Origin: Hyphomonadaceae bacterium
Lineage (GTDB): Bacteria; Pseudomonadota; Alphaproteobacteria; Caulobacterales; Hyphomonadaceae
Length of the DNA: 42,636 nt
Direction of reading: 5' to 3'
Assembly (NCBI GenBank): GCA_030696545.1
Contig: JAUYSA010000157.1
Location: 1-42,636 of the forward strand
Below, one piece after another: positions 24,925 to 41,371 of this stretch (the stretch's first letter is position 1; each line of letters starts with the position of its first letter). Both the position numbers and the translations under genes were made by a program. Below the pieces are notes generated by a model that made no database searches, was not told the origin of the DNA, and saw nothing but the letters and a program-made list of their open reading frames with translations.

Positions 24925-24927
24925 CGC

Positions 24928-27248: not shown

Positions 27249-27500
27249 TTGGACGTGCAGGAAGTTCTGGATCGGCTCGATCGCATCGAGCAAATGCTGG
27301 AGTCGCAGTCGCGACCAGTGGAGTACCTCGACACCGATGGCGCCTCGCGCTTCACCGGCATCTCGGCAAAGCAGCTGGAGAACTGGCGCAGCGACCGCAC
27401 CGGCGGCCCGGCCTATACGAAGCGGGGTCGCTCGGTGTTCTACGCGATCTCGGACCTCAGAAGCTTCATGCAGGCCAAGCGTGTGGAGCCCCTGCAATGA
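27249..27500 (+). CDS. AlpA/excisionase-like HTH protein
   Basis: 83 aa. EYLDTDGASRFTGISAKQLENWRSDRTGGPAYTKRGRSVFYAISDLRSFMQ fits the MerR-type HTH_17 / excisionase pattern. The start (TTG 27249 or a downstream ATG) is uncertain. Confidence 0.7.
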   Translation: MDVQEVLDRLDRIEQMLESQSRPVEYLDTDGASRFTGISAKQLENWRSDRTGGPAYTKRGRSVFYAISDLRSFMQAKRVEPLQ

Positions 27501-27850: not shown

Positions 27851-28060
27851 GCCATCGTTTCCCGGCCCGCGAGCATTGCTGGCATCCCGGGGCGAAACAC
27901 CTTGGCATGCTGTGAGAGTCGGCCGCCCGACCTCAACGGGCGGGCGACCTAATCTCAGGTTGGCACATGGTTTGCTGGCGTTCGCAGCGTCAGCGTGTGG
28001 TTCACAGACAGGAGATTAGGAAGAGCATCATCCCATCACCGCCTATGGAGGGCGGGAACC

Positions 28061-28291
28061 ATGACCGAACATAACGAGACGGGCGTCGCAGGTACGCCCT
28101 CGAACGAAGCCGACATCATCCTCGCGCCGACCGTGGCCGCGCTGATGGGCATCACTTACAACACCTTCCGGTCCTACAGGGCCAACGCTCGCGGCCAGAC
28201 GCCGCCTCCCCTCGGCAAGAGGGCGAGCAACTACCTCTGGTCAATGAAACAGGTCGAGGCATGGCTCGCCGCACGCAGCGAGCGCGGCTGA
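28061..28291 (+). CDS. second excisionase/AlpA-like HTH protein
   Basis: ATG 28061 behind GGAGGG. ILAPTVAALMGITYNTFRSYRANARGQTPPPLGKRASNYLWSMKQVEAWL fits an HTH_17-like pattern. It lies immediately upstream of the primase gene. Confidence 0.6.
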   Translation: MTEHNETGVAGTPSNEADIILAPTVAALMGITYNTFRSYRANARGQTPPPLGKRASNYLWSMKQVEAWLAARSERG

Positions 28292-28294
28292 GCC

Positions 28295-30673
28295 ATGGAC
28301 ATCGACACCAAGCAACTGCGCCGCCTGGCGGACGCGGGCCTGCAGCTCATCCCTCTTCACAGCTGGGACGCGAAGAGCACCGACGCCAAGGGTCGCAAGC
28401 GCGATGACGGCAAACGGCCGCTCGACGCCAGCTGGACCACCCGGCCCTACGACACCCTGAAGGTCGTCGAGCGTGCGGAGCACACCAACTCAAACGTCGG
28501 CGTCCGGCTAACCGCCGAGCAAGTCGTCCTCGACTGGGACCCGCGCGCCGACACCGGCGAATACTCCGACCCCGCGATAAATGCTTTCGTTGAGTTCGTG
28601 CTGTGGCATGGCCTCAACCCCGACGACTTCCCGCAAGTCGAGACGGGCGGCGGCGGGCTGCACATCTACATGGCGAAGCCAGCCGACGTGGCAGTACTCG
28701 GCAGCCTGGAGAACTACCCTGGCGTGGAGTTCAAGACGAAAGGCCAACAGGTCGTGGCGCCGGGCTCGGTCCATCCTAATGGCAAAATCTACGTACTGGT
28801 CGAGGACTTCAACGACATTGGATCGCCCGATCAGGCGCCGAAACATCTGCTCGACGCCATCGTCCGGACGACCACGAGCGCAGCTGTCACCGAAGGCGGC
28901 CAGTACGACCAAGAGCTCATCGCGGCCATGCTCGAAGGCCTCGACCCGGGCGACTTCGGCGAGCACGACAAGTGGCTCAAGCTGATGATGGCGTGCCACC
29001 ATGCATCCGCCGGCGCCGCACGCGAGGAGTTCATCGAATGGTCTACCAAGGACCCGGTGTATCAGGACGACGCCTGGATCATCGGTCGGCGCTGGGACTC
29101 GCTGCACGCGAAGCGGGACGGTGCCACCGTCACCTATAAGTCACTCAACAAGTTCCTGTGCGACGTGGGAAGGGGCGATCTGATCCCCTCTACCGCCGCA
29201 GAGGACTTCGGGGACGACGATCCGGCCATGGCCGATGAGCCGTCGGGCGGAGAGCTGCCTCAGGGACCGCTCACCGGCATGAACGAGAAGTTCTGGGCCG
29301 TGCTCAACGCTGGTCGCTTCCGGATCATGTGGCTGGCGGATGACCCCGAGGAGCCGGGACGCCGCTTCTGGAAGTCGCTGGCGAAGCCGGACTTCGAGGC
29401 GTACCTGTCCAACCGCAAGATCGAGAAGCCTGCGAAGAACAAGAAGGGCGAGACGGTCACCGAGACCACGCCCCTCGCAAAGGCGTGGCTCGACTGGGGC
29501 CATCGGCGCCAGGCGGAGGACGTGGTGTTCGTCCCCGACCGCGAGGTGCCGGGCAGCCTCAACCTCTGGACCGGATGGGGCGTGGATCGCGGTGAGAGCG
29601 GCGAGTGCCGGCTCATGCTGGAGATGATCCGCGACGTGCTCTGCTCGGGCGTGCAGGAGCACTACGACTACCTGATGCGGTGGATGGCCTGGAAGGTACA
29701 GAACCCCGGCGAGCCGAACGAGGTCGCGGTGGTCTTCAAGGGCGCGAAGGGCGTGGGCAAGACGACGCTCGGCGAGTCGCTGGCGAAGATCTTCGGATCG
29801 CACGGCCTGGTGCTGAGCTCGGTGGAACAGATCGCGGGTCGGTTCTCGGGCCATCTCGCGACCGTCTGCTTCCTCTTCGGCGACGAGATATTCTGGGGCG
29901 GCAACAAGACCCACGAGGGCACGCTCAAGAAGATCATCACCGACAGGGAGGTCATGCGCGAGGCCAAGGGTGTGGACATGGTGAGGGCGCGCAACCGCAT
30001 CAGCCTCATGATGGCGACGAACGAGAAGTGGGCCGTCCCGGCATCGCTGGAGGGCGAGCGCCGCTTCTTCGTGCTCAATGTCTCCAGTGAAAGGAAGGTA
30101 CCCGACAGCGCCCCGGCGGACCATCCGAACCGGCTCTACTGGAACGCCGTGCACGACGAGATCAGAGACGGCGGCAGGGCGGCCTTCCTCCGCCACCTGA
30201 TGGCGATGGACCTCGGTCGCTTCCATCCGCGCTCTGCCGTACCGGAGACGGAGGGCATGTCGGAGCAGAAGGTGCACAGCCTCGATCCGCTCCAACGCTG
30301 GCTGCTGTCTGCCACCGAGCTGGGCGTCCTTCCCGGATACCCGAGCACGAAGGACCAGAAGCAGCTTCGCCGTACCGACTGGGAGCTGAAGCAGGACTGG
30401 TCGCAGGTGGAAGCACACGACCCGCCTCGGCTCGACCCCACCTCCGTCATGGAGAACGTCGAGGCCCACTGGTCGAAGCTCCGCTCGCCGGTCCCAGGTG
30501 TGCTGACCGTCAAGAACATGCTGGAGGAGTTCGGCTGGCAGAGCAGGAAGTCGAACGGGGTGGTGACGTGGCGACCGCCGACCCTGGAGCAGGCACGACA
30601 GGAGTGGCGGCGGCGGCTGCCCGGCCTCACGGTCTTCGAGGCGCCGCCCGAGGACGATGAGTGGGACAGCTGA
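28295..30673 (+). CDS. bifunctional primase-polymerase (PrimPol) fused to a D5/P4-type SF3 helicase
   Basis: 792 aa. N-terminal PrimPol motifs LIPLHSWD, VGVRLTAEQVVLDWD, GGGGLHIYMAKP, GVEFKTKGQQVVAPGSVHPNG. Central PriCT-like helical region. C-terminal Walker A VVFKGAKGVGKTTLGESL and Walker B-like CFLFGDE. Confidence 0.88.
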   Translation: MDIDTKQLRRLADAGLQLIPLHSWDAKSTDAKGRKRDDGKRPLDASWTTRPYDTLKVVERAEHTNSNVGVRLTAEQVVLDWDPRADTGEYSDPAINAFVEFVLWHGLNPDDFPQVETGGGGLHIYMAKPADVAVLGSLENYPGVEFKTKGQQVVAPGSVHPNGKIYVLVEDFNDIGSPDQAPKHLLDAIVRTTTSAAVTEGGQYDQELIAAMLEGLDPGDFGEHDKWLKLMMACHHASAGAAREEFIEWSTKDPVYQDDAWIIGRRWDSLHAKRDGATVTYKSLNKFLCDVGRGDLIPSTAAEDFGDDDPAMADEPSGGELPQGPLTGMNEKFWAVLNAGRFRIMWLADDPEEPGRRFWKSLAKPDFEAYLSNRKIEKPAKNKKGETVTETTPLAKAWLDWGHRRQAEDVVFVPDREVPGSLNLWTGWGVDRGESGECRLMLEMIRDVLCSGVQEHYDYLMRWMAWKVQNPGEPNEVAVVFKGAKGVGKTTLGESLAKIFGSHGLVLSSVEQIAGRFSGHLATVCFLFGDEIFWGGNKTHEGTLKKIITDREVMREAKGVDMVRARNRISLMMATNEKWAVPASLEGERRFFVLNVSSERKVPDSAPADHPNRLYWNAVHDEIRDGGRAAFLRHLMAMDLGRFHPRSAVPETEGMSEQKVHSLDPLQRWLLSATELGVLPGYPSTKDQKQLRRTDWELKQDWSQVEAHDPPRLDPTSVMENVEAHWSKLRSPVPGVLTVKNMLEEFGWQSRKSNGVVTWRPPTLEQARQEWRRRLPGLTVFEAPPEDDEWDS

Positions 30674-30677
30674 TCGG

Positions 30678-30965
30678 CTCACAGTGCTCGGTGGCGGACC
30701 GTTCCGGATTGAGCACTGTGCCCAGTCACTGAAAAAGCTCAGCGTTTCCTAGGCAAAGTTCTCACAGTGCTCATAGTGCTCAATAGTATTTGTTTTTATG
30801 CATGAAGAAGAGACTGCAGCAGCTGGTACGACTGGGTAGGCGCTGTGTTGTTCGTCCGTATACGGAACTCGAAACCGGCGAGCCCTGGAGCCCTGGAGCA
30901 CTTTCGCTTCAGAACCAAGGCGTTGCGCAGTGCTAGCTGGAACCCAGTCCGATCACTGAAGCACT
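30678..30965. repeat. candidate replication origin: iterons plus AT-rich tract
   Basis: CACAGTGCTC at 30680-30689 and 30763-30772, variant CATAGTGCTC at 30772-30781, and an inverted copy GAGCACTGTG at 30711-30720. Half-sites GAGCACT at 30896-30902, CAGTGCT at 30928-30934 and AGCACT at 30960-30965. The lowest-GC stretch I noticed by eye is AATAGTATTTGTTTTTATGCATGAAGAAGAG (30782-30812). Tandem CCCTGGAG x2 at 30883-30898. Confidence 0.55.
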
Positions 30966-31197
30966 TTCCCGCCGAGGGGACGCAGCCTGGCGAACCTTGC
31001 AGGGAGCCTTGCAACGCTGGGTTACGGCGCCGAGAACACGCGCCAATCTGAGTCGAGAGTGTGAGACGGCCTCGCGCATATGCGCGCGTAGATCGCCCCT
31101 CATGACGTCTGATCATATGTCCCTCCTACCGGCCCGAAATGCCCTTCCGATCCAAGGCGATGGAGGGGGCTAGTCTCGGAGCCCGACGAGGGGCCCG

Positions 31198-31770
31198 ATG
31201 GAGATCAATGCCGTGACGACTGGAAGACTGCCCGCGGTGATCGAGCGGGAGCGCGACGACGTAGTGGACCGCTTCCTGGAGATCGTCCGCTCGACTGGCA
31301 ATTCCAGCGGCGCCGCCAGAGCCGTGGGGCTGAGCCGCCAGGCGTTCTACGAGCGCGCCGTTCGTGATCCCGACTTTCGGCAAGAATGGGAGCACGCCCA
31401 GCGCCAGTCTCGCAGCCACATCGCCCAGGAGATCATGGATAAGGCGGTGGTGCTCACCGGCCGCGTGATCGAGGAACCGCTCCTGGACCTCCAGGGCAAC
31501 CAGGTCCTGGATGAGAACCTGGAGGCCGTAACGATCCGCCGAGTCGTGGATTACGACGCGCGCATCCTGTCGAAGCTTCTCGATAAGCTGCTCGCATCCG
31601 AGGACGGCGCACCGATCACTGCTGTTCAGGTCAACCTGCCGCCTCCTCCCCCGCCACCTCCGGCCCCTCCGCGTGTCGCGCGCCTGGTCTTCGCGGATGC
31701 TCGGCCTGACGACTCGGCGCCGAGAGTCACCGAAGCGATCCAGGATGCGACCTGGGAGCCTGTGGGATGA
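31198..31770 (+). CDS. terminase-small-subunit-like HTH protein
   Basis: 190 aa. STGNSSGAARAVGLSRQAFYERAVRDPDFRQEWEHAQRQSRSHIAQEIMD...DYDARILSKLLDKLL matches the HTH + helical pattern of proteobacterial prophage TerS proteins. It has a poly-Pro run (PPPPPPPPAPP) near the C-terminus. Confidence 0.55.
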   Translation: MEINAVTTGRLPAVIERERDDVVDRFLEIVRSTGNSSGAARAVGLSRQAFYERAVRDPDFRQEWEHAQRQSRSHIAQEIMDKAVVLTGRVIEEPLLDLQGNQVLDENLEAVTIRRVVDYDARILSKLLDKLLASEDGAPITAVQVNLPPPPPPPPAPPRVARLVFADARPDDSAPRVTEAIQDATWEPVG

Positions 31771-32090
31771 GCGGTATCGTCTTTAAGTTCTTCAGCCTGG
31801 GCGGCGTGATCCTGGAACAGTTCTGCGACCCGGACGCACCAGGCGGCGTTGCGCTTCTGCCAGCCAGGGTCTTCCTGGCGGACCCCAGGGAGTCACGCGA
31901 TGGTTTGGTGGCCGAAATGGCCCGGCGCCTGCCAGCCGAAAGGCGCATCCCCTGGATCGACCACGAGGCGAGAGACCTGGCGGCCCGCACGCTGGGCGCC
32001 GACAACCTGGTCGCCGACGCGGACGCGTACATCCGATCCACGCCCGCATACGAGGGCAGCTCGGACCTCTACCGCGGAGACGACTCGTGA
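31767..32090 (+). CDS. hypothetical protein (paralog pair member 1)
   Basis: ATGA overlap with the TerS-like stop. 107 aa. Shares GLVAEMARRLPAERRIPWIDHE with the next gene. Confidence 0.5.
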   Translation: MSGIVFKFFSLGGVILEQFCDPDAPGGVALLPARVFLADPRESRDGLVAEMARRLPAERRIPWIDHEARDLAARTLGADNLVADADAYIRSTPAYEGSSDLYRGDDS

Positions 32091-32380
32091 GGGTCGAGTT
32101 TCCCAGTGGCGTTGGTGCGTGCGCGATCGCCGACCCAGGTGCGCCAGGGCGCTCGACGACGCTGAGCTTCAGGGTGCTGCTCGGCAACGCGTGCGACGAC
32201 GAGGGGATACTGGCGGAGATGGAGCGGAAACTTCCCGCGGAGAAGCGACTGCCCTGGCGGGACCGAGAGAGCCACGCCTGGGCCATCACGCAGCTGGAGC
32301 GCGGTCCCTATCCAGGCATGTCGGAGGAAGAACAGCGCGCCGCCGTCCAGTATGTCAGGGAGACAGCCTACTATGAGTGA
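32087..32380 (+). CDS. hypothetical protein (paralog pair member 2)
   Basis: GTGA overlap with the previous stop. 97 aa. Motif GILAEMERKLPAEKRLPWRDRE. Confidence 0.5.
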   Translation: MRVEFPSGVGACAIADPGAPGRSTTLSFRVLLGNACDDEGILAEMERKLPAEKRLPWRDRESHAWAITQLERGPYPGMSEEEQRAAVQYVRETAYYE

Positions 32381-32675
32381 CATGGATGCCTTGGTGGCTG
32401 AGGCCGTGAAGGACGCGCCGCCTCTTCCCCACCTCACCCAGGGCGAGAACATCGCCAGGGTCGTATGGGCCATGCTCCACATCACCGGAACGCTGGAGTT
32501 CGGCCGGGGATGGGCTGCTCCTGTCGCAAGGGCGTTCGAGCGAGCTGGCCTCCGTGCTCCTTCCGCAGACGTTCTGTACGCTGAAAAATCCTCCCTGCGC
32601 CGCGACCCACGTCACCGTTCCGCGCACTGTCCTGACCCGGCGCTCATCGAGGACGTGCTCTCCGGTAGGGCCTGA
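32373..32675 (+). CDS. hypothetical protein
   Basis: ATG 32373 overlaps the previous gene by 8 nt. Product MSDMDALVAEAVKDAPPLPHLTQGENIARVVWAMLHITG... No recognisable family. Confidence 0.45.
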   Translation: MSDMDALVAEAVKDAPPLPHLTQGENIARVVWAMLHITGTLEFGRGWAAPVARAFERAGLRAPSADVLYAEKSSLRRDPRHRSAHCPDPALIEDVLSGRA

Positions 32676-32921
32676 CGCCTGGCCTTGGCCGAGTAGCTTC
32701 CTAACGCCTTGGTACGACTCGCCTTCCCGAGCCTTTCGGGGCGCATGTGATCCGCAGTCTGTCGCGCCCGAGGACGCCCGCGTCCTCGAAGGACTCCCAG
32801 GGGAGGCCTGCCATCGTTTCTCGACCGAGGGTTTCCGACGCTGATCGATCGCCACAAGCTGCTCCTCGAACGCACCCATGCCCGCCCGCCCACGAGCGGA
32901 CGCGCGATAGAGGAAAAAGCG

Positions 32922-33482
32922 ATGAAGGCCGACAGGATCAAAGAGCTGACTGCCAGGGGCAACGCCGCTGAGACAGGCGTCGAAAATCTAGATCAAGAAA
33001 TCGCCATCGCGATCGCCGACGGCGTGGACGACGAGATCATCGACGACATGCGCCGCCGCCGCCGGGAACTGATCGAGCAGGCCAGCGACCTCGGAGACGC
33101 CCTCCTCGTCCTTGAGAAGAGAGCCGCTGATCCCCGCGAGAAGCTCCAGGCGTCGATCATCGCTGGCGGTCTTCGCGACGCCAGGCGAGAAGCCGACACC
33201 TACATTCAGTCCGCCGCGGCCGTGGACGCCGCATTGGTTGCGGTCGAGAAGGCGCTGACCGACCTTCGCAAGCATGGCTCGGACCTTAGCCGCGCTCTCC
33301 GCATCGCCGGCGTCGATGACAAGGCCCGTCTCAGCAACACACTGCATTCAGCCACGCGCTGGGCAATATGGAAGAGCTCGCCATCGCTCGCGGAACTGGC
33401 TCAGGTGCCCCATACGCCAGCCAACAAGCGGTTCGCGCTCGCCCACAGCATGCGGCGCGTGATGCCCGCGATCCCGGAGTAG
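32922..33482 (+). CDS. hypothetical coiled-coil protein
   Basis: 186 aa, with RBS GAGGAAAAAG upstream. Charged heptad-like sequence (DDMRRRRRELIEQASDLGDALLVLEKRAADPREKLQ). Confidence 0.5.
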   Translation: MKADRIKELTARGNAAETGVENLDQEIAIAIADGVDDEIIDDMRRRRRELIEQASDLGDALLVLEKRAADPREKLQASIIAGGLRDARREADTYIQSAAAVDAALVAVEKALTDLRKHGSDLSRALRIAGVDDKARLSNTLHSATRWAIWKSSPSLAELAQVPHTPANKRFALAHSMRRVMPAIPE

Positions 33483-33486
33483 AGCC

Positions 33487-33744
33487 ATGACGGGAAAACT
33501 CCCACCGCGCGTCACCGGCGGCACGCTGGCCGCAGACCACCACGACTTCATCGACGCCGCATCGAAGACCGACGTCGATCTTGAGGCAGAGGTGAAGGCC
33601 TTGGAGCAAAGGCGCGACGAACTGGAAGCCGAACTTGCGGCGATCATCATCAACGAGGCCAACCAAAAGCTGGCCGACGAACTCAGACAGCAGGTCGAGA
33701 ACCTGGAAAACGAACTGGCCCAGAGCCAGTCAAGCAAGGAATAG
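33487..33744 (+). CDS. hypothetical coiled-coil protein
   Basis: 85 aa, 4 nt after the previous stop. DLEAEVKALEQRRDELEAELAAIIINEANQKLADELRQQVENLENELAQ. Confidence 0.5.
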   Translation: MTGKLPPRVTGGTLAADHHDFIDAASKTDVDLEAEVKALEQRRDELEAELAAIIINEANQKLADELRQQVENLENELAQSQSSKE

Positions 33745-33748
33745 CCCC

Positions 33749-34042
33749 ATGAGTGACTACCAGAAAGCCACCGACGCAGCGATGCACACGCTGGAGCAGC
33801 TGGAGGAGGGCGTGAACAAACACGCCGAGAGCTTCGGCGTAATCAGAAAGCGAGCGGATGACCTCTACCAGAGCAGGGTCGCCCAGATCGCGAAGGCCAA
33901 CAACGTCGACGTCAACAAGGCGCACGCCCTGGCGGTCGATGATCCCGTCGCCAGCCGAGCCTACGCGCTCTCCGAGGAACTGGCCGAGCGACAGAATGGT
34001 GCGCATGACGCTGGCGAGCAGATCGCAGCGTACCTCGACTAG
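33749..34042 (+). CDS. hypothetical helical protein
   Basis: ATG 33749 behind AAGGAA. 97 aa, MSDYQKATDAAMHTLEQLEEGVNKHAESFGVIRKRADDLYQSRVAQIAK... The N-terminal part of track ORF 33635..34042 is discarded. Confidence 0.5.
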   Translation: MSDYQKATDAAMHTLEQLEEGVNKHAESFGVIRKRADDLYQSRVAQIAKANNVDVNKAHALAVDDPVASRAYALSEELAERQNGAHDAGEQIAAYLD

Positions 34043-34284
34043 ATCAGAAAGGCGTGGAGTAGCCTCGCCCTCGGGTCCTTGCGTTCGGATGCGCGCCGGG
34101 ACCCGCCCAATCCAGGGACACTCGTCTCCCTACGGCGGAGCAGGTTCCACCGAACACCCGCAGGCTGACCGTCATCCGGTCCGCGGCGTGCGGCCCCGGC
34201 GAGTGGTTGCGTCGGGGCCGACCATTTCAAGCTAGACCGCGCAAACGGCCCCTCCTTGGGCACGCCACGTCGGCGCGGAACCTG

Positions 34285-34327
34285 GCCCCCGCTGCGGTCC
34301 TCATGGCCCCGCGGCGGGGGCATTTTT
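34285..34327 (+). terminator. Rho-independent terminator closing the plus-strand small-gene operon
   Basis: GCCCCCGCTGCGG (34285-34297) pairs with CCGCGGCGGGGGC (34309-34321) with one mismatch, followed by ATTTTT. Confidence 0.65.
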
Positions 34328-34681
34328 CTATCTGCGCTTCGCAGGCTTCGCTGAGCCACGCTCGCGCGCCCGCCTGACTTCGGCGTCCGTCAGCACGCCT
34401 GGCTTGTCCTTGCGCAGCCTTGACCTGTACCAGCTGATTGACCGCAGGGTCGTCGCGGCGCCCGGGTGAGTGCGGAAAACCGCCTCCAGCGCCTCATCGT
34501 TCGTGCCGCCACTCAGGATCACGCGCTGCGCGACCTCCGCTACGCCCAGCCAGTGGCCCTCGAACAGGAACCGGCTCACGGCCTCGCGCACCACGTCGCT
34601 GACCGAGCTGCCAGCCACCGAGGCGGCGTCCTCCAGCCCTTCTACCAACTCCTCCGGGATCGTCACATTCATCCGCCGCAT
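34328..34681 (-). CDS. ribbon-helix-helix (CopG-like) regulator with C-terminal extension
   Basis: ORF 34328..34798. Start placed at ATG 34681 (or 34672). The start MRRMNVTIPEELVEGLEDAASVAGSSVSDVVREAVSRFL is a typical RHH N-terminus. It is divergent from the 34789 gene. Confidence 0.7.
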   Translation of the reverse strand: MRRMNVTIPEELVEGLEDAASVAGSSVSDVVREAVSRFLFEGHWLGVAEVAQRVILSGGTNDEALEAVFRTHPGAATTLRSISWYRSRLRKDKPGVLTDAEVRRARERGSAKPAKRR

Positions 34682-34788
34682 CGGGCGGTCCGGCCCCTGC
34701 ATTGCACACCTCATGGCATGGCTGGTGTCTACCGGCCCATCTTTGGACACTTCCGTCCACGGTGGTCGCACATAGGAGTAAATGTGCC
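34682..34788. promoter_or_regulatory. divergent promoter/operator region
   Basis: 107-bp gap between the RHH gene and the plus-strand module. The inverted repeat GCACAT-N8-ATGTGC (34768-34787) spans the AGGAG RBS of the 34789 gene. Confidence 0.35.
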
Positions 34789-35382
34789 ATGAACGCAACT
34801 AAGGGTGGCTACCAACAGCCGAACGACTACCCGGCCCACACTCAAGAGTGGGCGCTGCGCCAGCTGGCGAACGTCGGCCTGCCCGGCGGCGCCAGCTCAG
34901 CCGAGCTGTCCGCGTTCGCTGCGGCGGCAGATCAGCTCCAGGCCGCACTCCGGACCTTCGATCAGACCTTCGTCGACCATGGCCCCGCAATGATCGCGGC
35001 GGTGCTGGTAGACCACGTCGGCGCCGGCTACGTGCTGGACTGCGGCTACTGCTTCGACATCCTGCAGATCGCCAGGGCGGAGTGCGGCTCCGACCGCGGA
35101 GAGATACCGGACGGCCCGCACGCGCGGACGCCTGGGTCCGTGGAAGACCTGACGTTCCTGCTGGACAGCGGCCAGTTCGACAACCTCGATCTGTGCCACG
35201 CCGCATTCGCGGCTGGCCTGGAGGGCCCGACCGAGATCGCCAAGGCAACGGGCGTGAAGGTGACCGTGGTCTCGGGCTGCCTCCACTGGATAAGGAAGGC
35301 GAACGGCGACCTCGCCGAGGCCCGCCGGCTCCGGAACGAGCGCGCCCGAGTGCGTCCTGGCACACCGGCTAGCGGTGAATGA
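34789..35382 (+). CDS. hypothetical protein with C-terminal HTH-like module
   Basis: ATG 34789, 10 nt after AGGAG. 197 aa. The C-terminal EIAKATGVKVTVVSGCLHWIRKANGDLAEARRLRNERA is shared with the next gene. Confidence 0.55.
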   Translation: MNATKGGYQQPNDYPAHTQEWALRQLANVGLPGGASSAELSAFAAAADQLQAALRTFDQTFVDHGPAMIAAVLVDHVGAGYVLDCGYCFDILQIARAECGSDRGEIPDGPHARTPGSVEDLTFLLDSGQFDNLDLCHAAFAAGLEGPTEIAKATGVKVTVVSGCLHWIRKANGDLAEARRLRNERARVRPGTPASGE

Positions 35383-35383
35383 C

Positions 35384-35695
35384 ATGAAGAAGACAGATCA
35401 GCTCTCCGTCGTACACGCCGCCTACATCACTGGCGCCGACACGGGCACTAAGGTCGAGAACGCGACGGGCGTGTCCTACAACTCCGCCAACGACTGCCTG
35501 TGCTGGATCAGGAAGGCCGACGGCGACCTCGAACGCGCGCGGCGTCTTCGCAGCCAACACAGTGTCGCTGTCTACATGCGCAGGTACAATTCGGACCCCG
35601 AGTTTCGTGCTCGTGCGAGGGCGCGCAACACCGCCGCGGAAAGCAGGCTCCGTCAAGAAAAGCGGGCCGCCCGCAACAACGGGGCGACGATGTAA
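35384..35695 (+). CDS. hypothetical protein with the same HTH-like module
   Basis: ATG 35384 lies 1 nt after the previous stop (GTG 35375 is an alternative start). Contains KVENATGVSYNSANDCLCWIRKADGDLERARRLRSQHS, then a YMRRYNSDPEFRARARARN tail. Confidence 0.5.
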   Translation: MKKTDQLSVVHAAYITGADTGTKVENATGVSYNSANDCLCWIRKADGDLERARRLRSQHSVAVYMRRYNSDPEFRARARARNTAAESRLRQEKRAARNNGATM

Positions 35696-35743
35696 CGCCG
35701 TAAGGGCCGCGCGCCCGTAAGCGCCGAATCATTCGCTGACAGG

Positions 35744-35773
35744 AAAAGGCCGGGAGCGATCCCGGCCTTTTTC
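35744..35773 (+). terminator. Rho-independent terminator
   Basis: GGCCGGGA (35748-35755), loop GCGA, TCCCGGCC (35760-35767), then TTTTTC. An A-run precedes it, so it could act in both directions. Confidence 0.75.
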
Positions 35774-35879
35774 ATTCGTAGCATTTTGTCGTCCCCGCCC
35801 CCGGCTCGCGGGCGCCAGCATGCGCGACACGCTCTCCCTCATCGACGCCACCCCGGCGCCGACCAACGGAGACAGTCAC

Positions 35880-36251
35880 ATGGACATGACGAAGATGACT
35901 GCGGGCGAGCTGCTCGCGGTCCACAACGAGCGGTGCCCCAAATCGGACCGCCTCACATCTTGGAAGGCATCGAAGGCGGCGCTGATCGCGAAGATCGAGA
36001 AGCTCGGTGAGCGCTCGAAGCAGACGAGTAAGCCGAAGGCCACCGAGAAGGCGAAACACGCGCCGACGGCCACCATAAGCGACTCGGTGAGGCGTCTGCT
36101 CGCCGATCCCAAGTTGAGTTACGCCGACATTGTTGAACTCGTACTCGCCGCCCATCCCGACGCCGCCACCACGACGCGCTCCATCGCCTCCGTCGCGAGT
36201 GTTCTTCGCAAGAAGGGCACAGCGGTCCCGATGCGGAAGGGAGCGAACTGA
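35880..36251 (+). CDS. hypothetical protein sharing the C-terminal domain of the RHH regulator
   Basis: ORF 35820..36251, with ATG 35880 behind GGAGA. The C-terminal ADIVELVLAAHPDAATTTRSIASVASVLRKKG resembles EALEAVFRTHPGAATTLRSISWYRSRLRKDKPG of the product of 34328..34681. Confidence 0.5.
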   Translation: MDMTKMTAGELLAVHNERCPKSDRLTSWKASKAALIAKIEKLGERSKQTSKPKATEKAKHAPTATISDSVRRLLADPKLSYADIVELVLAAHPDAATTTRSIASVASVLRKKGTAVPMRKGAN

Positions 36252-36252
36252 G

Positions 36253-36549
36253 ATGACCGAATTTTTGGGATGGGGCGTTGCGGTGAAGATCGCGGAGAAA
36301 TTCCACGAACGCATCCGCGCCGAGCTTGGCGAGCACTTGACGGAGATCGACAATCTGAATGCCAAGCAGAAGGACTGCTGTGGAACGCATCTCTACTGTG
36401 ACCCCAACGACTACATGGGGGATGCATTTTTCGAGACGGTCGGAAGAGAGATCAACGTGCAAAGCGGCCACGACCTCGCTGTCTTCGACGTGGCGTGGGG
36501 AATTGCGCGGCGCCGCGGGTTTTCGAGGACGTGGGGGATTGGCGCATGA
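36253..36549 (+). CDS. hypothetical protein
   Basis: ATG 36253 lies 1 nt after the previous stop. 98 aa, MTEFLGWGVAVKIAEKFHERIRAELGEHLTEIDNLNAKQKDCCGTHLYCDPNDYMGDAFFE... No recognisable family. Confidence 0.45.
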   Translation: MTEFLGWGVAVKIAEKFHERIRAELGEHLTEIDNLNAKQKDCCGTHLYCDPNDYMGDAFFETVGREINVQSGHDLAVFDVAWGIARRRGFSRTWGIGA

Positions 36550-36731
36550 TCGGCTTCCTTGAGCTGCCGTGCCTCAGCGGCCCCGCCCTCATCCGTCTCG
36601 ATAGGGTGGTCCTCGTGAGGCCCGACCCCACGGCGGCCGCCACGCGTACTCTCATCGTGTTGGACGGCGCCCAAGAGGTTCTCATCACCAAGCCCGCCGC
36701 GGAGGTGGTGAGCGCGATGAAGGCGGTCTAA
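36546..36731 (+). CDS. hypothetical small protein
   Basis: ATGA overlap with the previous stop. 61 aa, MIGFLELPCLSGPALIRLDRVVLVRPDPTAAATRTLIVLDGAQEVLITKPAAEVVSAMKAV. Confidence 0.4.
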   Translation: MIGFLELPCLSGPALIRLDRVVLVRPDPTAAATRTLIVLDGAQEVLITKPAAEVVSAMKAV

Positions 36732-36756
36732 TCCGGCCAAGGCGAAGAACTGTGTG

Positions 36757-36785
36757 AGGGCGCGGAGCGATCCGCGCCCTTTCTC
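36757..36785. terminator. hairpin terminator between convergent operons
   Basis: AGGGCGCGGA (36757-36766), loop GCGA, TCCGCGCCCT (36771-36780), then TTCTCTATTC on the plus strand. It abuts the stop of the HEPN-like gene. Confidence 0.65.
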
Positions 36786-37273
36786 TATTCTGCTGCGAGC
36801 GGCATCGGTCCGACCATCTCATTGAGCTTCCCATGGAACGCCTTGAGAGCTTCCTGCCCGACCGTCATCGAGCGCATGAGCATCAGCACAGCAGTTCCAG
36901 CGACAAGAAGGTCCACGTCTCGATCCGTCGCCGTCTTGTCGCCGTGGAAGAAGTTGTTCCGCACGTCTTTCAGGTGATCGACGAGCTTGGCGGCGTCCGT
37001 CGAGGCGGCGGGGAAGTCTCCCCAAACCGGCGGACCGTCTTCCGGACCCATGACCAGCTTCCGGGGCGGATGGTCGATCAGATGCCGCGCCTGCGGGAGC
37101 AAGCTGGCCTTGGCGAAGAAGTCGGCGGGCAGCATGAGGACGAACGTCGTCCAGTCGGCGGCCGCGGGTTTACCGGTCTTCCACTTCGTTCCCTTACAGT
37201 GGAGGCCGCCCCGCTTCATCGCGTACTCGAACGCTCCGAACAGCCTCGCGAACTCCATTGCCTGCGGGTACAT
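36785..37273 (-). CDS. HEPN-like protein (R-x4-H motif)
   Basis: 162 aa. RNNFFH at residues 105-110 (nt 36944-36961, verified as CGGAACAACTTCTTCCAC) sits in the context LKDVRNNFFHGDK. The protein is helical, with an N-terminal EFARLFGAFEYAMKRGG helix. It is the last gene of the four-gene operon. Confidence 0.5.
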   Translation of the reverse strand: MYPQAMEFARLFGAFEYAMKRGGLHCKGTKWKTGKPAAADWTTFVLMLPADFFAKASLLPQARHLIDHPPRKLVMGPEDGPPVWGDFPAASTDAAKLVDHLKDVRNNFFHGDKTATDRDVDLLVAGTAVLMLMRSMTVGQEALKAFHGKLNEMVGPMPLAAE

Positions 37274-37285
37274 GGCGGCCTCTCG

Positions 37286-37594
37286 CTAGATCTTGCTCTG
37301 GATGCTGAGCTGCGCCTGCGCGAGCGCGGCCCGTGCTTCCGCGAGCGCGGCGACGGCGGCATGGGCAGACTGTCCGCTCAGGTACGGGCCGGGCGCAGGC
37401 AGATCAGAGGTCGGCGCGGCCGCGACGTGCGGGAAGCTGTCACCAGTGGCGACGTTGGCGATTCGTCCGCCGTTGACGCCGAACCAGCTGGCGATGTCGT
37501 GCTGACGGTCGCCGCGCGCGAGCATGCCCTTCACTATGGCGGCGTCGGCGGCGGTGAGACGGATGCCGCTCGAAGGCGCGCGTTTCCTGGTCAT
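37286..37594 (-). CDS. small HTH protein
   Basis: ORF 37286..37660, with ATG 37594 behind AAAGGA. MTRKRAPSSGIRLTAADAAIVKGMLARGDRQHDIASWFGVNGGRIANVATG fits a sigma-70 region 4 / GcrA-like HTH pattern. Confidence 0.5.
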   Translation of the reverse strand: MTRKRAPSSGIRLTAADAAIVKGMLARGDRQHDIASWFGVNGGRIANVATGDSFPHVAAAPTSDLPAPGPYLSGQSAHAAVAALAEARAALAQAQLSIQSKI

Positions 37595-37608
37595 GGTGAG
37601 GTGTCCTT

Positions 37609-37794
37609 TCACTTCGTGTCGTTGGCGGGTGTGGGAGGCGGGCTGTTTTCGGGAATGCACCCATCAAACAGCTTCGACCGGACGTACTCAGAACGGTCGC
37701 AGTGCCGCTCTTGGGCCGCCCGGTCGAGCGCGTCGCACTGCTCCTCGGTGACCCGGACGGTGACGTACTTGATGCGCTTGGAACCCTTGGCCAT
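37609..37794 (-). CDS. small ribbon-helix-helix protein (MobC/CopG-like)
   Basis: ORF 37609..37938, with ATG 37794 behind GAGGGTGAG. 61 aa, MAKGSKRIKYVTVRVTEEQCDALDRAAQERHCDRSEYVRSKLF. Confidence 0.55.
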   Translation of the reverse strand: MAKGSKRIKYVTVRVTEEQCDALDRAAQERHCDRSEYVRSKLFDGCIPENSPPPTPANDTK

Positions 37795-37805
37795 GACGCT
37801 CACCC

Positions 37806-39506
37806 TCACGCTGCGCGCTTGCGTAGGACGAGGCCCGGGACCTCGGGAAACGGCTCCTTGCGCGGGCCGACCTGCTGCCACTTCAGCGTCGCCACGGGCC
37901 GGTCTTGAAGGTAAGCGTTCCATGCCTTGATGATCCATGCGGCGCGCTCAGCGTCCGGAATGCTGACCTTCTTGTCGATCTTGGCGCGCACGAGCTGGTC
38001 GCGCAGGGTCAGGATCGGGTGGCGCGCCGGGAGCTCGGCGCCGTCCGTCAGGCGATTGAGGAAGAAGTCAGCCTTCCTCGGGTGCACGCGGCGGAAGAAG
38101 TAGTGCAGCGCAATGACGAGCGTCGGCGCGGTGATGTCACGGATCTTCTGACCGTTGCGCACGCTGTCACGGAGCTCGGGGTGCGCCTTCAGCGTGGACA
38201 TCAACTCGGCGTTGGTGGGAGCAGCTCCGCGAGACTGGAGCAGCCCGTTCTCGAAGAGCCAGACCTGACGGAGGCACGCGGCAAGAAGGCTGGTATTCGT
38301 CTCGCCCAGATCCCGCAGAATATCGCCGAAGGCGCGCTTCGACCCGAGGTCGAACGTCTCGAACACCGAGGGATCGAGGCCCCTGACGATCATCGCAGGA
38401 AAGGGCTTGTTCGCAAGAACGCCCGCCTGGAGCCGGTGCTGGCCGTCCAGCAGCCGTCCGTCCTTGGCGACCTTGATAGTCTGGCCGTTGAGCTTCCACG
38501 CCCCGGACTTGATGTCCCTGGCGTACTTCTTCACCACCATACCGGAGATGGGCCGGTTATGATCGTTCCGCTCCAGCAGCATCTCGGCCATGGCCGGATC
38601 TACGTCGACGATCTCCACCTCGATGCCACGGGCGTTGAGGCGTGGACGCCGGCCGCCTGCCGCCGCCTCAGGCACCGAAGCAAGGCCGGTGCGCAGCGCG
38701 TCTTCATCAATCCCACTCACACGAGGCGGGTTGTCGGTCCCGGGCACGAAGCGGAGCTGCTTCATCGGCTCACCGGCGACGAAGGCCTCCCACGCCTTGA
38801 TGAACAGGCCGATCACCAGACCTTGGGACTTCATGCCCCTGGTATCCTGGAGGGCCTGGAGCTGGCGCCGGAGGAGGTAAGCGGGCCCCTCGTCCACTTC
38901 CTCATCTACAAGCTCGTGGAAAAACTCGTTGGCCTTCTCGGGGTCGCGCTTCCAGAACAGGTAGTGCATGGCAGCGACCACGCCGAGCGACATGAACGAA
39001 GACGCGTCGGCGGCCAGCGCCATGCTCAGCCGGACATCCGGGTTGTTCGCCAGGATCTGGAGACGCTGCTGGGCCGTCACCTTCCGCCCAGGAGCGGCGT
39101 AGTTGTCATTCGCATACCGCCAGAGGACTGCCAGCGCCGCAGCAAGGGCGCGCCCGTTCTCCTCGTCCTTGATCGACAGGATGTCCCCAACGGTGCGGCT
39201 GCGCACTGCATCGATCGTGTCGAATGCAGAGTCTGCAACGCCTCGGACCAGCAACGCGGGGAAGGGAACCTTGGCTTGGACGCCTGCCGCCAGACGCAAA
39301 ACGCCGTCGAGAACTTGCCCGCTCTGGCCAAGGATGACAGGCTCGCCGTTCATGCGCCAGCGGCCCATTCTCATGTCTTCGGCGAAGGCCTCGACCTGCT
39401 GGGGGTTCAGGCGCCGCTCCAGCCGCTTCTTTTGGAGAAGCAAGGCGGCCTCTGCTGGCTTGATGAGGACGATCTCGTGGGTGATCTTGGCGGGCGGGCG
39501 CTTCAT
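37806..39506 (-). CDS. tandem-duplicated ParB/Srx-like (DGQHR-type) protein
   Basis: 566 aa made of two homologous halves of about 280 aa. Repeat 2 has ISGMVVKKYARDIKSGAWKLNGQTIKVAKDGRLLDGQHRLQAGV (DGQHR at nt 38433-38447, verified as GACGGCCAGCACCGG). Repeat 1 has the degenerate NPQQVEAFAEDMRMGRWRMNGEPVILGQSGQVLDGVLRLAAGV. Both are followed by similar helical domains (IKAWEAF / IKAWNAY). Confidence 0.65.
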   Translation of the reverse strand: MKRPPAKITHEIVLIKPAEAALLLQKKRLERRLNPQQVEAFAEDMRMGRWRMNGEPVILGQSGQVLDGVLRLAAGVQAKVPFPALLVRGVADSAFDTIDAVRSRTVGDILSIKDEENGRALAAALAVLWRYANDNYAAPGRKVTAQQRLQILANNPDVRLSMALAADASSFMSLGVVAAMHYLFWKRDPEKANEFFHELVDEEVDEGPAYLLRRQLQALQDTRGMKSQGLVIGLFIKAWEAFVAGEPMKQLRFVPGTDNPPRVSGIDEDALRTGLASVPEAAAGGRRPRLNARGIEVEIVDVDPAMAEMLLERNDHNRPISGMVVKKYARDIKSGAWKLNGQTIKVAKDGRLLDGQHRLQAGVLANKPFPAMIVRGLDPSVFETFDLGSKRAFGDILRDLGETNTSLLAACLRQVWLFENGLLQSRGAAPTNAELMSTLKAHPELRDSVRNGQKIRDITAPTLVIALHYFFRRVHPRKADFFLNRLTDGAELPARHPILTLRDQLVRAKIDKKVSIPDAERAAWIIKAWNAYLQDRPVATLKWQQVGPRKEPFPEVPGLVLRKRAA

Positions 39507-39840
39507 CGGGTTTGACCTGCGGCGGGCAACAGGGCTTGCCCAAGAGCAATCTCTGCCCGTCGCCTAACATGAGCAAGAAGATTCGTGTTGCACGCCTCGT
39601 CACCGTCAACTGGGTTGACCATGGGAGAAGGTAAAATCCGTCCTATGCCCCTGATTATTCAGCCTAAAACACGATCAAGAAGGGTGCGATGAGGATTCAG
39701 CAGTGCCGACTTTGTTCTTCCCATACGGAAGCATGATCCGTGTCGTCGCGGGGGTCATCAGCACGGCGTCGGCGGTCCTGCGATTCTCATGCAAAGCAAA
39801 CGCTGGTCCCCTTCTAGCATAAAACGCAGCAACATGGGCT

Positions 39841-40461
39841 ATGGAAACAGCCCACCAACGCCTGGCGGCCGCCCTGCACCGGGAAGGCATCGCGAACGAA
39901 GAGTCCGCCTCGCCGGAGGCGGCTGGACGCCTTTGCGCAGAGCTGGGTATCTCACCGAAGAGCCTGCGAAACCGGCGCTGGGAGCTCAAAAAGGCCTCTG
40001 AAGCGGGCTGCGAGGCAAACCAAGGACCGGTTAGCGCGCAGGGGCGAAGATACAGGTCGGACCCAGCCTACGCTGCCGCGATGCGTGAAAAGGCGCGGAG
40101 AGCCCGCGTGAGGAACTACGCCTATCACGTATTCAAGAACACGCGCGGCAACGCACGGAAACGCGGCCTGCGCTTCGAGCTCACGCGAGAACAAGTCGCT
40201 GAACTGCTGGTGCCGATGCAATGCTCGATGACCGGCCTCCCGCTTCTGCCAGATTGGGACGGTCCCGGCCGCAACCCGTGGTGGCCCAGCCTCGATCAGA
40301 TCGACCCGTGCGCTGGCTACACAAGGCAGAATGTCCGAGTGGTCTGCTGGGCCTATAACGTGATGAAGGGCGAACTGACCGACCAAGAGGTCCGTATCTA
40401 CGCCTCCGCCCTGTTGCGCGGCCCCTCGGGCCGGACCCGGAGGCCGGGGACAAGATCATAG
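39841..40461 (+). CDS. HNH-like (DRID-GY-NV motif) protein, paralog 1
   Basis: 206 aa. ARKRGLRFELTREQVAELLVPMQCSMTGLPL...PSLDQIDPCAGYTRQNVRVVCWAYNVMKG matches a pattern I recognise from phage-associated HNH-type proteins (S-DRID-x-GY-x-NV). Confidence 0.55.
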   Translation: METAHQRLAAALHREGIANEESASPEAAGRLCAELGISPKSLRNRRWELKKASEAGCEANQGPVSAQGRRYRSDPAYAAAMREKARRARVRNYAYHVFKNTRGNARKRGLRFELTREQVAELLVPMQCSMTGLPLLPDWDGPGRNPWWPSLDQIDPCAGYTRQNVRVVCWAYNVMKGELTDQEVRIYASALLRGPSGRTRRPGTRS

Positions 40462-40505
40462 CCGCACGTCTCTACAGCAACGGGGTCTCCGCGTCGGCGC
40501 ACCTG

Positions 40506-40856
40506 ATGCGCACGTGGCGGGCGAGTGCTGGCGGCAGAGGCCTAGAGTTCTCGCTGACCTACGACTGGCTCAGTCCACGCCTGACGAGGGGAGTATGCGA
40601 GGTCACGGGTCTACCGCTGGCGATGGAGTACGGAGGGCGTGCGCACCGGAACCCTCTCGTTCCGAGCGCAGACCGGATCGACGGCTCGAAGGGATACTCC
40701 CCTGAGAACGTGCGCCTCGTCTGCGGCTGGTTCAACTACGCCCGACAGGACTGGCCTGATGAGGTCGTCAGGAAGGTGGCGCTGGGACTATTGCGCCTCA
40801 GTTCTCGTGCCGCTTTCCGGAGTCGAACCGGAACGACCGAAGTCGCCGCATTTTGA
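40506..40856 (+). CDS. HNH-like (DRID-GY-NV motif) protein, paralog 2
   Basis: 116 aa. GGRGLEFSLTYDWLSPRLTRGVCEVTGLPL...PSADRIDGSKGYSPENVRLVCGWFNYARQ. The last ~49 nt run into the antisense tRNA-Leu gene, so the C-terminus is doubtful. Confidence 0.45.
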   Translation: MRTWRASAGGRGLEFSLTYDWLSPRLTRGVCEVTGLPLAMEYGGRAHRNPLVPSADRIDGSKGYSPENVRLVCGWFNYARQDWPDEVVRKVALGLLRLSSRAAFRSRTGTTEVAAF

Positions 40857-40889
40857 GTGCGGTGCGTCTACCAATTCCGCCAAAGCGGC
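40808..40889 (-). tRNA. tRNA-Leu(CAA), intact, carried inside the element, no encoded CCA
   Basis: Minus strand reads GCCGCTTTGGCGGAATTGGTAGACGCACCGCACTCAAAATGCGGCGACTTCGGTCGTTCCGGTTCGACTCCGGAAAGCGGCA (82 nt). Acceptor GCCGCTT/AAGCGGC, anticodon stem CCGCA/TGCGG with loop CTCAAAA, long variable arm, T-arm TCCGG TTCGACT CCGGA. The downstream bases are CGAG, not CCA. Confidence 0.9.
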
Positions 40890-41044
40890 ACGAGCGGGCG
40901 TTCTAACCCGATCGATCGGATAGCGGAAGTCCGGCTTGGCCTATGTGTGGCTTTTCGGGCTTCGAGATCTGGCCGGACTCGTCCAGAGAGCCGCAACGCC
41001 TTGATCCGGAGTCGATTTTCGTGATGGGCCGCGAGAGGCACTCA

Positions 41045-41056
41045 GGATTTTGAGTC
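41045..41056. repeat. attR core (direct repeat GGATTTTGAGTC)
   Basis: Identical to 24973-24984. Confidence 0.85.
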
Positions 41057-41086
41057 CGTTGCGTCTGCCAATTCCGCCACTCCCGC
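41045..41086 (-). pseudogene. 5-prime fragment of the disrupted tRNA-Leu(CAA) (acceptor to anticodon loop)
   Basis: Minus strand reads GCGGGAGTGGCGGAATTGGCAGACGCAACGGACTCAAAATCC. GCGGGAG pairs with CTCCCGC of the 24928-24984 fragment, and ACGGA pairs with TCCGT there. What follows it (TGAGTGCCTCTCGCGG...) cannot complete a tRNA. Confidence 0.9.
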
Positions 41087-41371
41087 GAGCGCGAGGGGCG
41101 GTGTTAGCGCAGGTGCGCGGCCAGTTAAAGAGGCCGTCTATCAGCTGGAGATCGTGGCCGGGCTTATGAGCTGGATGCTGAAATAGGCGCCAAGGATCAC
41201 GCACATTGCCCAATGCGGGGCAACGCGGAGCGATACAGAACGGATGTTGCGGAGGGTGCGCATAGGGACGACCCGAAACTCTAAGCCGCGGCGGACCATC
41301 CGGCGCGTGATCAGAGCCTCGCCCAAGATCGCAAATATCCGGTTCACGAGATGCAGAAATTTTGATCGAAT

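Follow-up and report, generated by a model that had tools for sequence, protein, structure and literature searches.

The 42,636-nucleotide stretch of Hyphomonadaceae DNA analysed here (contig JAUYSA010000157.1; hereafter the window) holds, near the right end of a satellite-like island, a block of four tightly packed genes that we call A to D. Gene A codes for a duplicated protein with a putative ParB/Srx-like repeat, B for a ribbon-helix-helix (RHH) protein, C for a small protein described as helix-turn-helix (HTH), and D for a likely HEPN-type protein. A preliminary description of the window took the four for a single conflict system in which a ParB-like sensor acts on a HEPN effector. This proposal did not survive comparison with other loci, in which A and B alone are conserved together and the relatives of D are solitary genes with unrelated neighbours. 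The reading of the block as a four-gene system fails because the families do not co-occur elsewhere, and we consider it probable, if well short of certain, that the block is instead a stack of three accessory units that travel separately, namely A-B, C and D.

Co-occurrence of the four genes

The comparison covers about 22 loci with the double-module form of A and about 36 D-family loci, all from motif-based scans. Co-occurrence of the four genes in other genomes, on which the preliminary description had itself made its system depend, was not found: in 88 loci with relatives of A, phmmer detected homologs of neither C nor D. Likewise, where genes had been called or annotated beside D in the D-family loci examined, none is an A homolog, no direct search of those loci with A as the query having been made.

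All four open reading frames (ORFs) lie where they had been placed, on the same strand and 11, 14 and 12 nt apart (Table 1). The GC content at the third codon positions of A, C and D (0.80-0.83, against about 0.43-0.56 at codon position 2) in a genome of 62-66% GC shows that these are real coding frames, and the starts of B and C are backed by homolog alignments. The upstream region reported between A and the divergent HNH-endonuclease gene is also present; a promoter scan of it gave no sigma-70 consensus match and a repeat search gave short inverted repeats at most, while an Rfam scan of the four-gene region gave no match. The block had further been said to end at a hairpin, and the hairpin is real, but its T-rich tail lies on the + strand and not on the operon strand. 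For this reason it looks more like a terminator chiefly of the convergent + strand ORF at 36495-36731, or it may act in both directions. The tight packing makes it probable that the four genes lie on one transcript in this island, and co-transcription may couple their expression here.

Profile searches of the four proteins against Pfam, NCBIfam, PADLOC and PHROGs bore out the preliminary expectations for RHH families, but returned no ParBc, DGQHR, HEPN or defence-system family. The PHROGs matches were to phrog_5931 and phrog_19013, both of unknown function, and a blastn search of the block against phages gave a single 69-nt match, over the DGQHR-coding stretch.

If the block were one dedicated conflict system, a ParB-like sensor of DNA or nucleotides would activate a HEPN RNase, with the RHH and HTH proteins as antitoxin or regulators. 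Each of the four gene types is a plausible part of such a system, the genes are co-oriented between one upstream region and one hairpin, within a satellite-like island the block takes the place of cargo, and, as had been anticipated, no named system accounts for it (none of the four proteins matched a PADLOC-DB v2.0.0 family at E<=1). We nevertheless hold this reading to be very improbable: A, C and D co-occur in none of the sampled loci, A-B makes up a full unit by itself, most often with a convergent gene after it, the relatives of D are solitary morons, and the closest of them (43% identity) follows an XRE/ImmA pair and no ParB-like gene.

A and B form a two-gene cassette

A and B are a conserved two-gene cassette of Alphaproteobacteria. 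An RHH ORF of 52-73 aa stands directly downstream of A in 17 of the 22 distinct alphaproteobacterial double-module loci, its start falling from 8 nt before to 18 nt after the A stop codon and often overlapping it by 4-8 nt; the exceptions in spacing are a 20-nt overlap (locus L011) and a 104-nt gap (locus L022). Over their strand-helix-helix core the 18 A-linked small proteins can be aligned gap-free, and the top five phmmer matches of B are RHH ORFs downstream of A (E 0.002-0.06). B itself is an RHH protein as described, matching PF21983 (NikA-like) with E 1.8e-6 and 28.4 bits against a gathering cutoff of 27, and more weakly TacA1, RHH_1, VapB and RelB. Since the next gene after A-B is convergent in at least eight loci, we regard A-B as a complete unit.

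A third component was sought in several ways. BLASTP clustering of the neighbours in 23 double-module loci left A as the sole common family, the Pfam families of 107 neighbours in 12 loci revealed no recurring partner, and phmmer found no conserved family among the small ORFs upstream of A. Among the 107 neighbours HTH_3 was the most frequent family (three proteins), followed by integrase and ParA-like families (two proteins each); the remaining families occurred once and, a Tn3 transposase apart, mostly have housekeeping roles. The NikA-like match of B might suggest that it assists a relaxase, but this was considered and rejected, no relaxase being adjacent in the loci with called or annotated genes or listed among the Pfam families of the 107 neighbours. 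The ~22-kb plasmid that has an A homolog carries a MobA gene about 5 kb away from it.

The search for homologs of A found 92, none of which carries a Pfam domain. The double-module form comprises about 90 proteins of 35-59% identity and is mainly alphaproteobacterial, occurring on chromosomes, on the ~22-kb plasmid and in islands. The single-module form was confirmed in at least 539 IMG/VR stretches, the best 80 loci being all of this form, and it is common in the genomes of Actinobacteria and Lysobacter. Phage single-module relatives are early genes beside the cro/repressor switch, and no RHH partner was found for the single-module relatives of phages and Actinobacteria. For instance, in Mycobacterium phage prophiGD43A-1 (genes 9-13) and Rhizobium phage RHph_TM3_3_10 such a relative follows a cro-like gene or stands at a divergent early promoter, and in prophiGD43A-1 the gene after it is annotated as a 'ParB-like DNA binding domain protein'. 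The A family is very common in phages, yet it has no Pfam model.

Duplication and motifs of protein A

The two tandem modules reported in the 566-aa protein are confirmed by hhalign, which aligns the N half to the C half with Prob 100 and E 4.6e-69 (32% identity over 263 columns), the halves being homologous across their whole length. A matches phrog_5931 in two stretches (E 7.9e-111), and each half aligns to one single gene of ~270 aa in 89 phage records. The DGQHR pentapeptide was found at the reported place in the C-terminal module (Table 1), with D354, G355 and R358 invariant and Q356 and H357 conserved to at least 90%, and is missing from the N-terminal module. The other invariant or near-invariant residues of the C-terminal module are N314, N317, R318, D331, W337, G341, Q342, K345, G350, L352 and L353. 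In the N-terminal module an alignment of 41 homologs leaves G54, G68, R71 and A74 invariant, with no equivalents of N314, N317, R318, K345, D354, Q356 and H357, and at the motif site A reads LDGVLRL against a consensus of LxGRLRL, so that G68 and R71 alone are kept. With the full motif set in the C repeat and only G68 and R71 in the N repeat, A has the appearance of a pseudo-dimer in which one site is live and the other degenerate.

Both modules have the GxxR motif, which in ParB is the phosphate-binding Box II, the C-terminal one behind an Arg-containing, Box I-like segment in the series N314-x-x-N317-R318 ... QTIKV ... LLDGQHRLxA and the N-terminal one as G68-x-x-R71, and the order of motifs in the repeat (N-x-x-N-R ... 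strand ... strand-DGQHR-helix) parallels Box I and Box II of ParB. An AlphaFold2 (AF2) model of A, built from a 41-sequence alignment (predicted local distance difference test score, pLDDT, 88.5; predicted template modelling score, pTM, 0.82), has two repeats, in each of which a strand-rich N-domain leads into about eight helices, and places the GxxR motif on a strand-strand-helix pattern. In a Foldseek search of the whole model against 350,542 PDB chains the four best matches were SspE, 6sdk_B, 6sdk_A and 7bnk_B. SspE came first by E-value (E 0.052, prob 0.10), and the ParB-CDP chains followed with E 0.056-0.22, prob 0.80-0.96 and target-normalised template modelling scores of 0.38-0.43; even the match to 6sdk_B (prob 0.96, E 0.056) is weak, no Foldseek match reaching E<=0.001. 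Using a ParB profile of three sequences (6sdk, 7bnk, 1vz0), hhalign sets QTIKV..LLDGQHRLQAG of A on QPLIVR..IVAGERRFRAA of ParB, which is the right Box II register, with P 0.002-0.006 in the local alignment and 0.002-0.017 overall, and P was still low after 50 single-module relatives had been added.

Searches of A and 41 of its homologs gave no match in Pfam, NCBIfam (both at E<=1) or PADLOC, PF02195 included, and the A profile had 0 matches at E<=10 among PDB sequences. Annotators have arrived at a similar name: a double-module relative of 30% identity is called 'ParB/RepB/Spo0J family partition protein' by the Prokaryotic Genome Annotation Pipeline (PGAP), and one phage annotator used 'ParB-like'. 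Taking together the motif order reminiscent of Box I and Box II, the hhalign register, the top Foldseek matches and these names, we hold it probable that the repeat of A is ParB/Srx-like.

The preliminary description had associated the pentapeptide with DndB-like proteins and DNA phosphorothioation. The pentapeptide is present, but the link to phosphorothioation did not stand, the TIGR03187 and PF14072 profiles giving no match. We reject a DndB connection for A, in which the QR pair and FxxxN motif that define the DGQHR/DndB family (PMC4619093) are replaced by NR and FxTFD. No dnd genes were found near A in the window.

What the A-B cassette might do

We envisage A as a single-chain pseudo-dimer derived from a duplicated phage-type ParB/Srx-like module, its C-terminal copy retaining the full predicted nucleotide-binding motif set and its N-terminal copy the GxxR core only. 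A would then serve as a DNA-binding switch gated by a nucleoside triphosphate (NTP), and B, presumably coupled to it in translation, would be its operator-binding partner or autoregulator. By analogy, A-B might work like KorB with KorA or TrbA, as an NTP-gated ParB-type switch with an RHH operator binder, a suggestion that we put forward only tentatively.

Alternatively, A-B might be an addiction or abortive-infection cassette akin to toxin-antitoxin (TA) pairs, with a ParB-fold NTPase or nuclease as toxin and an RHH antitoxin that represses its own operon, C and D being separate cargo. The 4-8 nt overlap of the A stop and the B start in many loci is typical of coupled TA pairs, B weakly matches the TacA, VapB and RelB antitoxin families and has diverged far more rapidly, at 13-29% identity, than A, at 35-59%, and the cassette is found inserted by itself in unrelated contexts as well as, on a plasmid and a metagenomic contig, in the company of ParDE, PIN/Phd and ParE modules. 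A recent preprint also reports an ATPase toxin derived from the ParB-CTPase fold (bioRxiv 10.64898/2026.05.05.722872). The arrangement would however be atypical for a TA pair, since a toxin of 566 aa comes first and the RHH protein of 52-73 aa has little room for a toxin-binding tail; moreover, the single-module relatives of phages and Actinobacteria do without an RHH partner, and 12 further A-B loci show no TA or defence enrichment. We therefore judge a TA-like role to be rather unlikely, though it is the main alternative for A-B.

A role in maintenance or packaging, with A binding a centromere or pac site of the excised satellite and B as an RHH adaptor, would fit the name 'partition protein' that PGAP gives to an A relative, the occurrence of one A homolog on a 22-kb plasmid that also has ParA, and the TerS-like and HNH genes of the island. 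We give this idea hardly any weight: no ParA gene lies beside A in the window or in any sampled locus, no LG[KR]GL-type ParA-binding motif is visible at the N-terminus of A, and many A-B loci are chromosomal, with housekeeping neighbours and without mobile-element genes. On the 22-kb plasmid itself ParA lies about 4 kb from the A homolog and has its own 82-aa partner.

Gene C

For C, described as a 102-aa HTH protein, the ORF is real, but the HTH label rests solely on a weak match to KorA (TrfB) with E 0.037. No homolog was found in 125 loci by phmmer, even at E 10. The closest homolog lies on plasmid pCasidaAB of Ensifer adhaerens, unannotated and 60.6% identical over residues 1-71, between a gene for a 313-aa XRE regulator and genes of DUF3800-like, AspBHI/Mrr type IV restriction and AIPR types; A, B and D are missing from that locus. 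A defence island with C and without A, B or D argues that C is an independently mobile small protein found beside defence genes. From its sequence C is probably a DNA-binding protein, and it could be a local transcriptional regulator of the gene downstream of it, which we propose with low confidence. We note in passing that the stretch at 7043-17252 of pCasidaAB, which resembles a defence island, has no gene features in the PLSDB table.

Gene D: a large family with HEPN hallmarks

A word-indexed search with D returned two homologs and an exhaustive profile search 1,240 cluster representatives (E<=1e-3); a profile-seeded search extended the family to 3,032 clusters at E<=1e-5, of about 150-170 aa, all 'hypothetical' and without a Pfam domain. 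A tblastn search of D against GenBank phages gave no match. Among 46 diverse members M1, E16, W41, R105, H110, G111 and K113 are invariant, and K20, N106 and N107 are conserved to at least 90%. The AF2 model (pLDDT 92.6) has helices at residues 3-21, 94-110, 117-137 and 141-154, the second ending in RNNFFH, which is where it had been reported in gene and protein (Table 1), and the insert at residues 22-93 contains short helices and a beta-hairpin.

The published HEPN signatures are an Rx4-6H motif at the end of helix 3 leading into a loop, a polar residue after the R, an Ex3[KR] motif upstream of it and, ahead of the motif helix, an insert (PMC3710099). D shows every one of them in the 46-member alignment and the model. 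The family has weak, sub-threshold Pfam matches to HEPN_Apea (4 of 46 members, best E 0.01), to HEPN_Swt1 and to DUF4145, which we take to be another HEPN-clan family. The top four PDB profile matches of D, also sub-threshold (E 0.054-0.095), are all to Marinitoga Csx1-Crn2, with R-N-x-x-x-H of D aligned on R401, N402 and H406, experimentally defined HEPN catalytic residues. Of the earlier account of D as a helical HEPN-type protein, the Rx4H motif and the sequence hallmarks thus hold, but Foldseek recovers no HEPN structure; the modelled order of helices suggests a permuted or N-terminally reduced HEPN bundle. On balance we think it likely that D is a HEPN-type protein.

The closest relative of D (43% identity; L005 1777-3496) is the third gene of an operon, behind an XRE-HTH gene and a gene for an M78 (ImmA/IrrE-type) peptidase. 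We take this pair to resemble the CapH/CapP-type regulator pairs of defence systems, an analogy that hints at expression induced by damage or infection. A further relative lies 26 nt after a gene for a 1,297-aa PIN-TPR-GreABC protein, beside Mrr and NB-ARC/WD40 genes, and another beside genes for a cyclic-nucleotide (cNMP)-binding TIR protein, a cyclase and an E2-like protein. Of 5,426 complete E. coli genomes, 12 have a D member in a P2-like prophage, in the interval that separates tail-fibre assembly from tail sheath genes and is presumably the fun(Z) slot of P2, between G and FI. In IMG/VR, D-family genes were found in 30 contigs, directly after integrases, after IS110 transposase, SRAP peptidase or tail-fibre assembly genes, and between P2 gpA and portal/terminase genes; the last interval is the P2 anti-phage hotspot (Rousset et al., PMC9122126). 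These neighbours are mutually unrelated and many D genes have an intergenic region of their own upstream, from which we conclude that D behaves as a single-gene moron.

Beside the D-family gene of E. coli UPEC132 we observed a conserved hypothetical gene for a 241-aa protein (L132 6644-7369), convergent with it and just downstream. The same gene is present in L114-L116 and L119, in the slot between tail-fibre assembly and tail sheath, and it could be a second moron or a partner.

As to mechanism, D would dimerise, form a composite Rx4H active site and cleave RNA without a metal, acting alone as an effector of abortive infection (Abi) or phage exclusion in the manner of the single-gene HEPN Abi proteins. 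We hold with moderate confidence that D is such a dimeric, metal-independent, stand-alone HEPN RNase.

Weighing three units against one

Several points weigh against our preference for three separate units and against the labels we have attached to them. The 11-14 nt gaps, the single upstream region and the single hairpin argue for joint expression, and A to D may interact functionally in this particular island. The sample is limited to motif scans of about 22 and 36 loci, in which rare co-occurrences could have been missed. The ParB label of A is weak, with no Pfam or NCBIfam match, hhalign P of 0.002-0.017 and a best Foldseek E of ~0.05, and for D, Foldseek against PDB and BFVD found no HEPN fold and nothing meaningful. 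Finally, the neighbours of A-B in 12 loci show no clear defence or TA enrichment, which leaves a conflict role for the cassette uncertain.

A bolder proposal would be that A-B is an unrecognised ParB-fold cassette that silences or attacks incoming DNA, and that the D family represents a new and very widespread kind of anti-phage HEPN effector, encoded by one gene and filling the classical exclusion slots of P2. We regard this combination as unlikely. If it were true, A would be an asymmetric single-chain ParB-type clamp, with a live nucleotide site beside a degenerate one, and A-B a self-contained conflict module missed by profile-based surveys.

The host island

The placement of the block in the attR-proximal cargo region of a satellite-like island is borne out by gene content and by in-silico excision. 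The same 12-bp direct repeat, GGATTTTGAGTC, occurs at 24973-24984 and 41045-41056, and removal of 24985-41056 in silico yields an intact 87-nt tRNA-Leu(CAA). The island splits this host tRNA gene in the anticodon stem-loop (24912-24984 / 41045-41087), and neither junction re-forms a tRNA; a complete and different tRNA-Leu(CAA) of the island itself lies at 40807-40889, 155 bp inside the right end, and is apparently a replacement for the split host copy. The attP junction joins GGATTTTGAGTC to ACAAAATC and is an imperfect inverted repeat. The four genes lie about 1.5 kb from the right end.

Among the island genes are those for a tyrosine integrase, an HTH_17 protein, a PrimPol/DUF5906 primase-helicase and an excisionase-like DNA-binding protein. 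Its genes of TerS-like, EndoVII-like and HNH types (Table 1) suggest a satellite that hijacks packaging; the island showed neither capsid nor helper-phage genes. A search for related islands with the PrimPol protein as query gave four distant metagenomic loci, in which synteny is limited to the primase. Like its paralog at 39841-40461, with which it has the motif ...DRID..KGY...NV..VC in common, a second HNH-like ORF (40506-40856) is situated between the four genes and the tRNA of the island. It overlaps the 3' part of the tRNA-Leu on the opposite strand and may therefore be a decayed copy.

Just left of the operon, two copies of a 57-nt direct repeat (74% identity; 35277-35333 and 35494-35550) lie inside the adjacent ORFs 34702-35382 and 35375-35695, which suggests two tandem paralogous small genes of unassigned function. 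Elsewhere in the window a two-piece (permuted) tmRNA gene of alphaproteobacterial type at 12965-13328 (RF01849, 238 bits) marks the DNA as alphaproteobacterial.

Table 1. Coordinates of the four genes, their motifs and associated features of the island, numbered from the first nucleotide of the window
Feature	Position	Strand	Remarks
Gene A, 566 aa	37806-39506	(-)	ORF call
A N-terminal module, residues ~8-275	38682-39485	(-)	degenerate motif site
A C-terminal module, residues ~295-566	37809-38624	(-)	intact motif set
DGQHR pentapeptide, residues 354-358 of A	38433-38447	(-)	position of ParB Box II / Srx GxxR
Gene B, 61 aa	37609-37794	(-)	internal ATG of longer ORF
Gene C, 102 aa	37286-37594	(-)	ORF call
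Gene D, 162 aa	36785-37273	(-)	ORF call
Ex3[KR] motif of D, E16-x3-K20 (FEYAMKR)	37214-37228	(-)	first long helix of D, 3-21
Rx4H motif of D, R105-N-N-F-F-H110, then G111, K113	36944-36961	(-)	C-terminal end of helix 94-110
Intergenic region, 334 bp, common to A and divergent HNH gene	39507-39840	.	presumed promoter/operator
GC-rich hairpin, 11-bp stem, 8 G-C pairs	36756-36781	.	between convergent D (-) and ORF 36495-36731 (+)
Host island, 16,072 bp between repeated cores	24973-41056	.	12-bp core GGATTTTGAGTC at both ends
Endonuclease VII-like gene	26251-27120		phrog_1035, E 3e-7
Small-terminase (TerS)-like gene	31198-31770		phrog_4044, E 4e-9
HNH-endonuclease gene, divergent from A	39841-40461		phrog_3322, E 4e-29

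Significance and relation to known systems

Operon-like packing in the cargo slot of an island does not make a system: the same spacing here joins three units that travel separately, and a tempting false lead is thereby removed. Two families emerge that current annotation misses completely, neither being matched in Pfam, NCBIfam or PADLOC. Being a fused pseudo-dimer of which one site is degenerate, A would offer a test case for the way in which N-domain engagement gates ParB-type switches. The D family, to judge from its sequences, would be a further type of stand-alone HEPN effector, with an unusually clear positional link to classical phage-exclusion slots; its members also lie beside Pycsar-like, Mrr and NLR-like genes, and the E. 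coli member WP_021578468.1 eases the testing of phage resistance.

The nearest parallel to A-B is KorB with KorA or TrbA on plasmid RK2, a ParB-CTPase clamp with a small DNA-binding partner (PMC11790492, PMC13584720). As with KorB, a putative ParB-fold protein on a mobile element is here accompanied by a small DNA-binding partner instead of ParA, and C even matches KorA weakly, as described above. Unlike KorB, A fails PF02195 and consists of two fused tandem copies, one of which has a degenerate site; the partner conserved with it is the RHH protein B and not an HTH protein, and NTP binding, clamping and repression are predictions only for A. Orphan ParB-CTPase-fold proteins on mobile elements have been surveyed (PMC12704722), and ParB-like phage proteins are described as activators of thymidine dioxygenases (PMC13229309). 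The A family resembles these orphans in lacking ParA, in its enrichment in phages, plasmids and islands, and in a Box III that is divergent or absent. The survey was seeded with PF02195, which the A family does not match, and its text uses neither the word 'tandem' nor the word 'RHH'; a tandem ParB-like protein accompanied by an RHH partner can be placed as a variant of the orphan theme that lies outside that survey. Unlike the dioxygenase activators, A has no adjacent dioxygenase or DNA-modification gene in the sampled loci. With the branch formed by DGQHR/DndB and DUF262 proteins (GmrS, the N-domain of SspE) A shares a DGQ(H/Q)R motif on a ParB/Srx-type strand-turn-helix, but the DUF262 profile gives no match, and dnd genes, ssp genes and an HNH/DUF1524 fusion are all missing.

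D is best compared with the HEPN Abi proteins (AbiD/F, AbiJ, AbiU2, AbiV), RnlA/LsoA and Csx1/Csm6 (PMC3710099), with which it has the Rx4H motif, the Ex3K motif and the insert in common. Unlike the known HEPN families it reaches no HEPN Pfam threshold, but like the HEPN Abi proteins it is small, stands alone and is associated with phages or defence genes. The sequence of D is unrelated to those of Old, Tin and Fun, and the island of the window, being alphaproteobacterial, is not P4-like in sequence. In position, however, there is a likeness to P2 and P4 cargo: D lies at the cargo end of a satellite-like island, a setting comparable to the psu-int hotspot of P4, and members of its family occupy the same P2-like slots as the morons old and tin, between gpA and gpQ (PMC9122126), and fun(Z).

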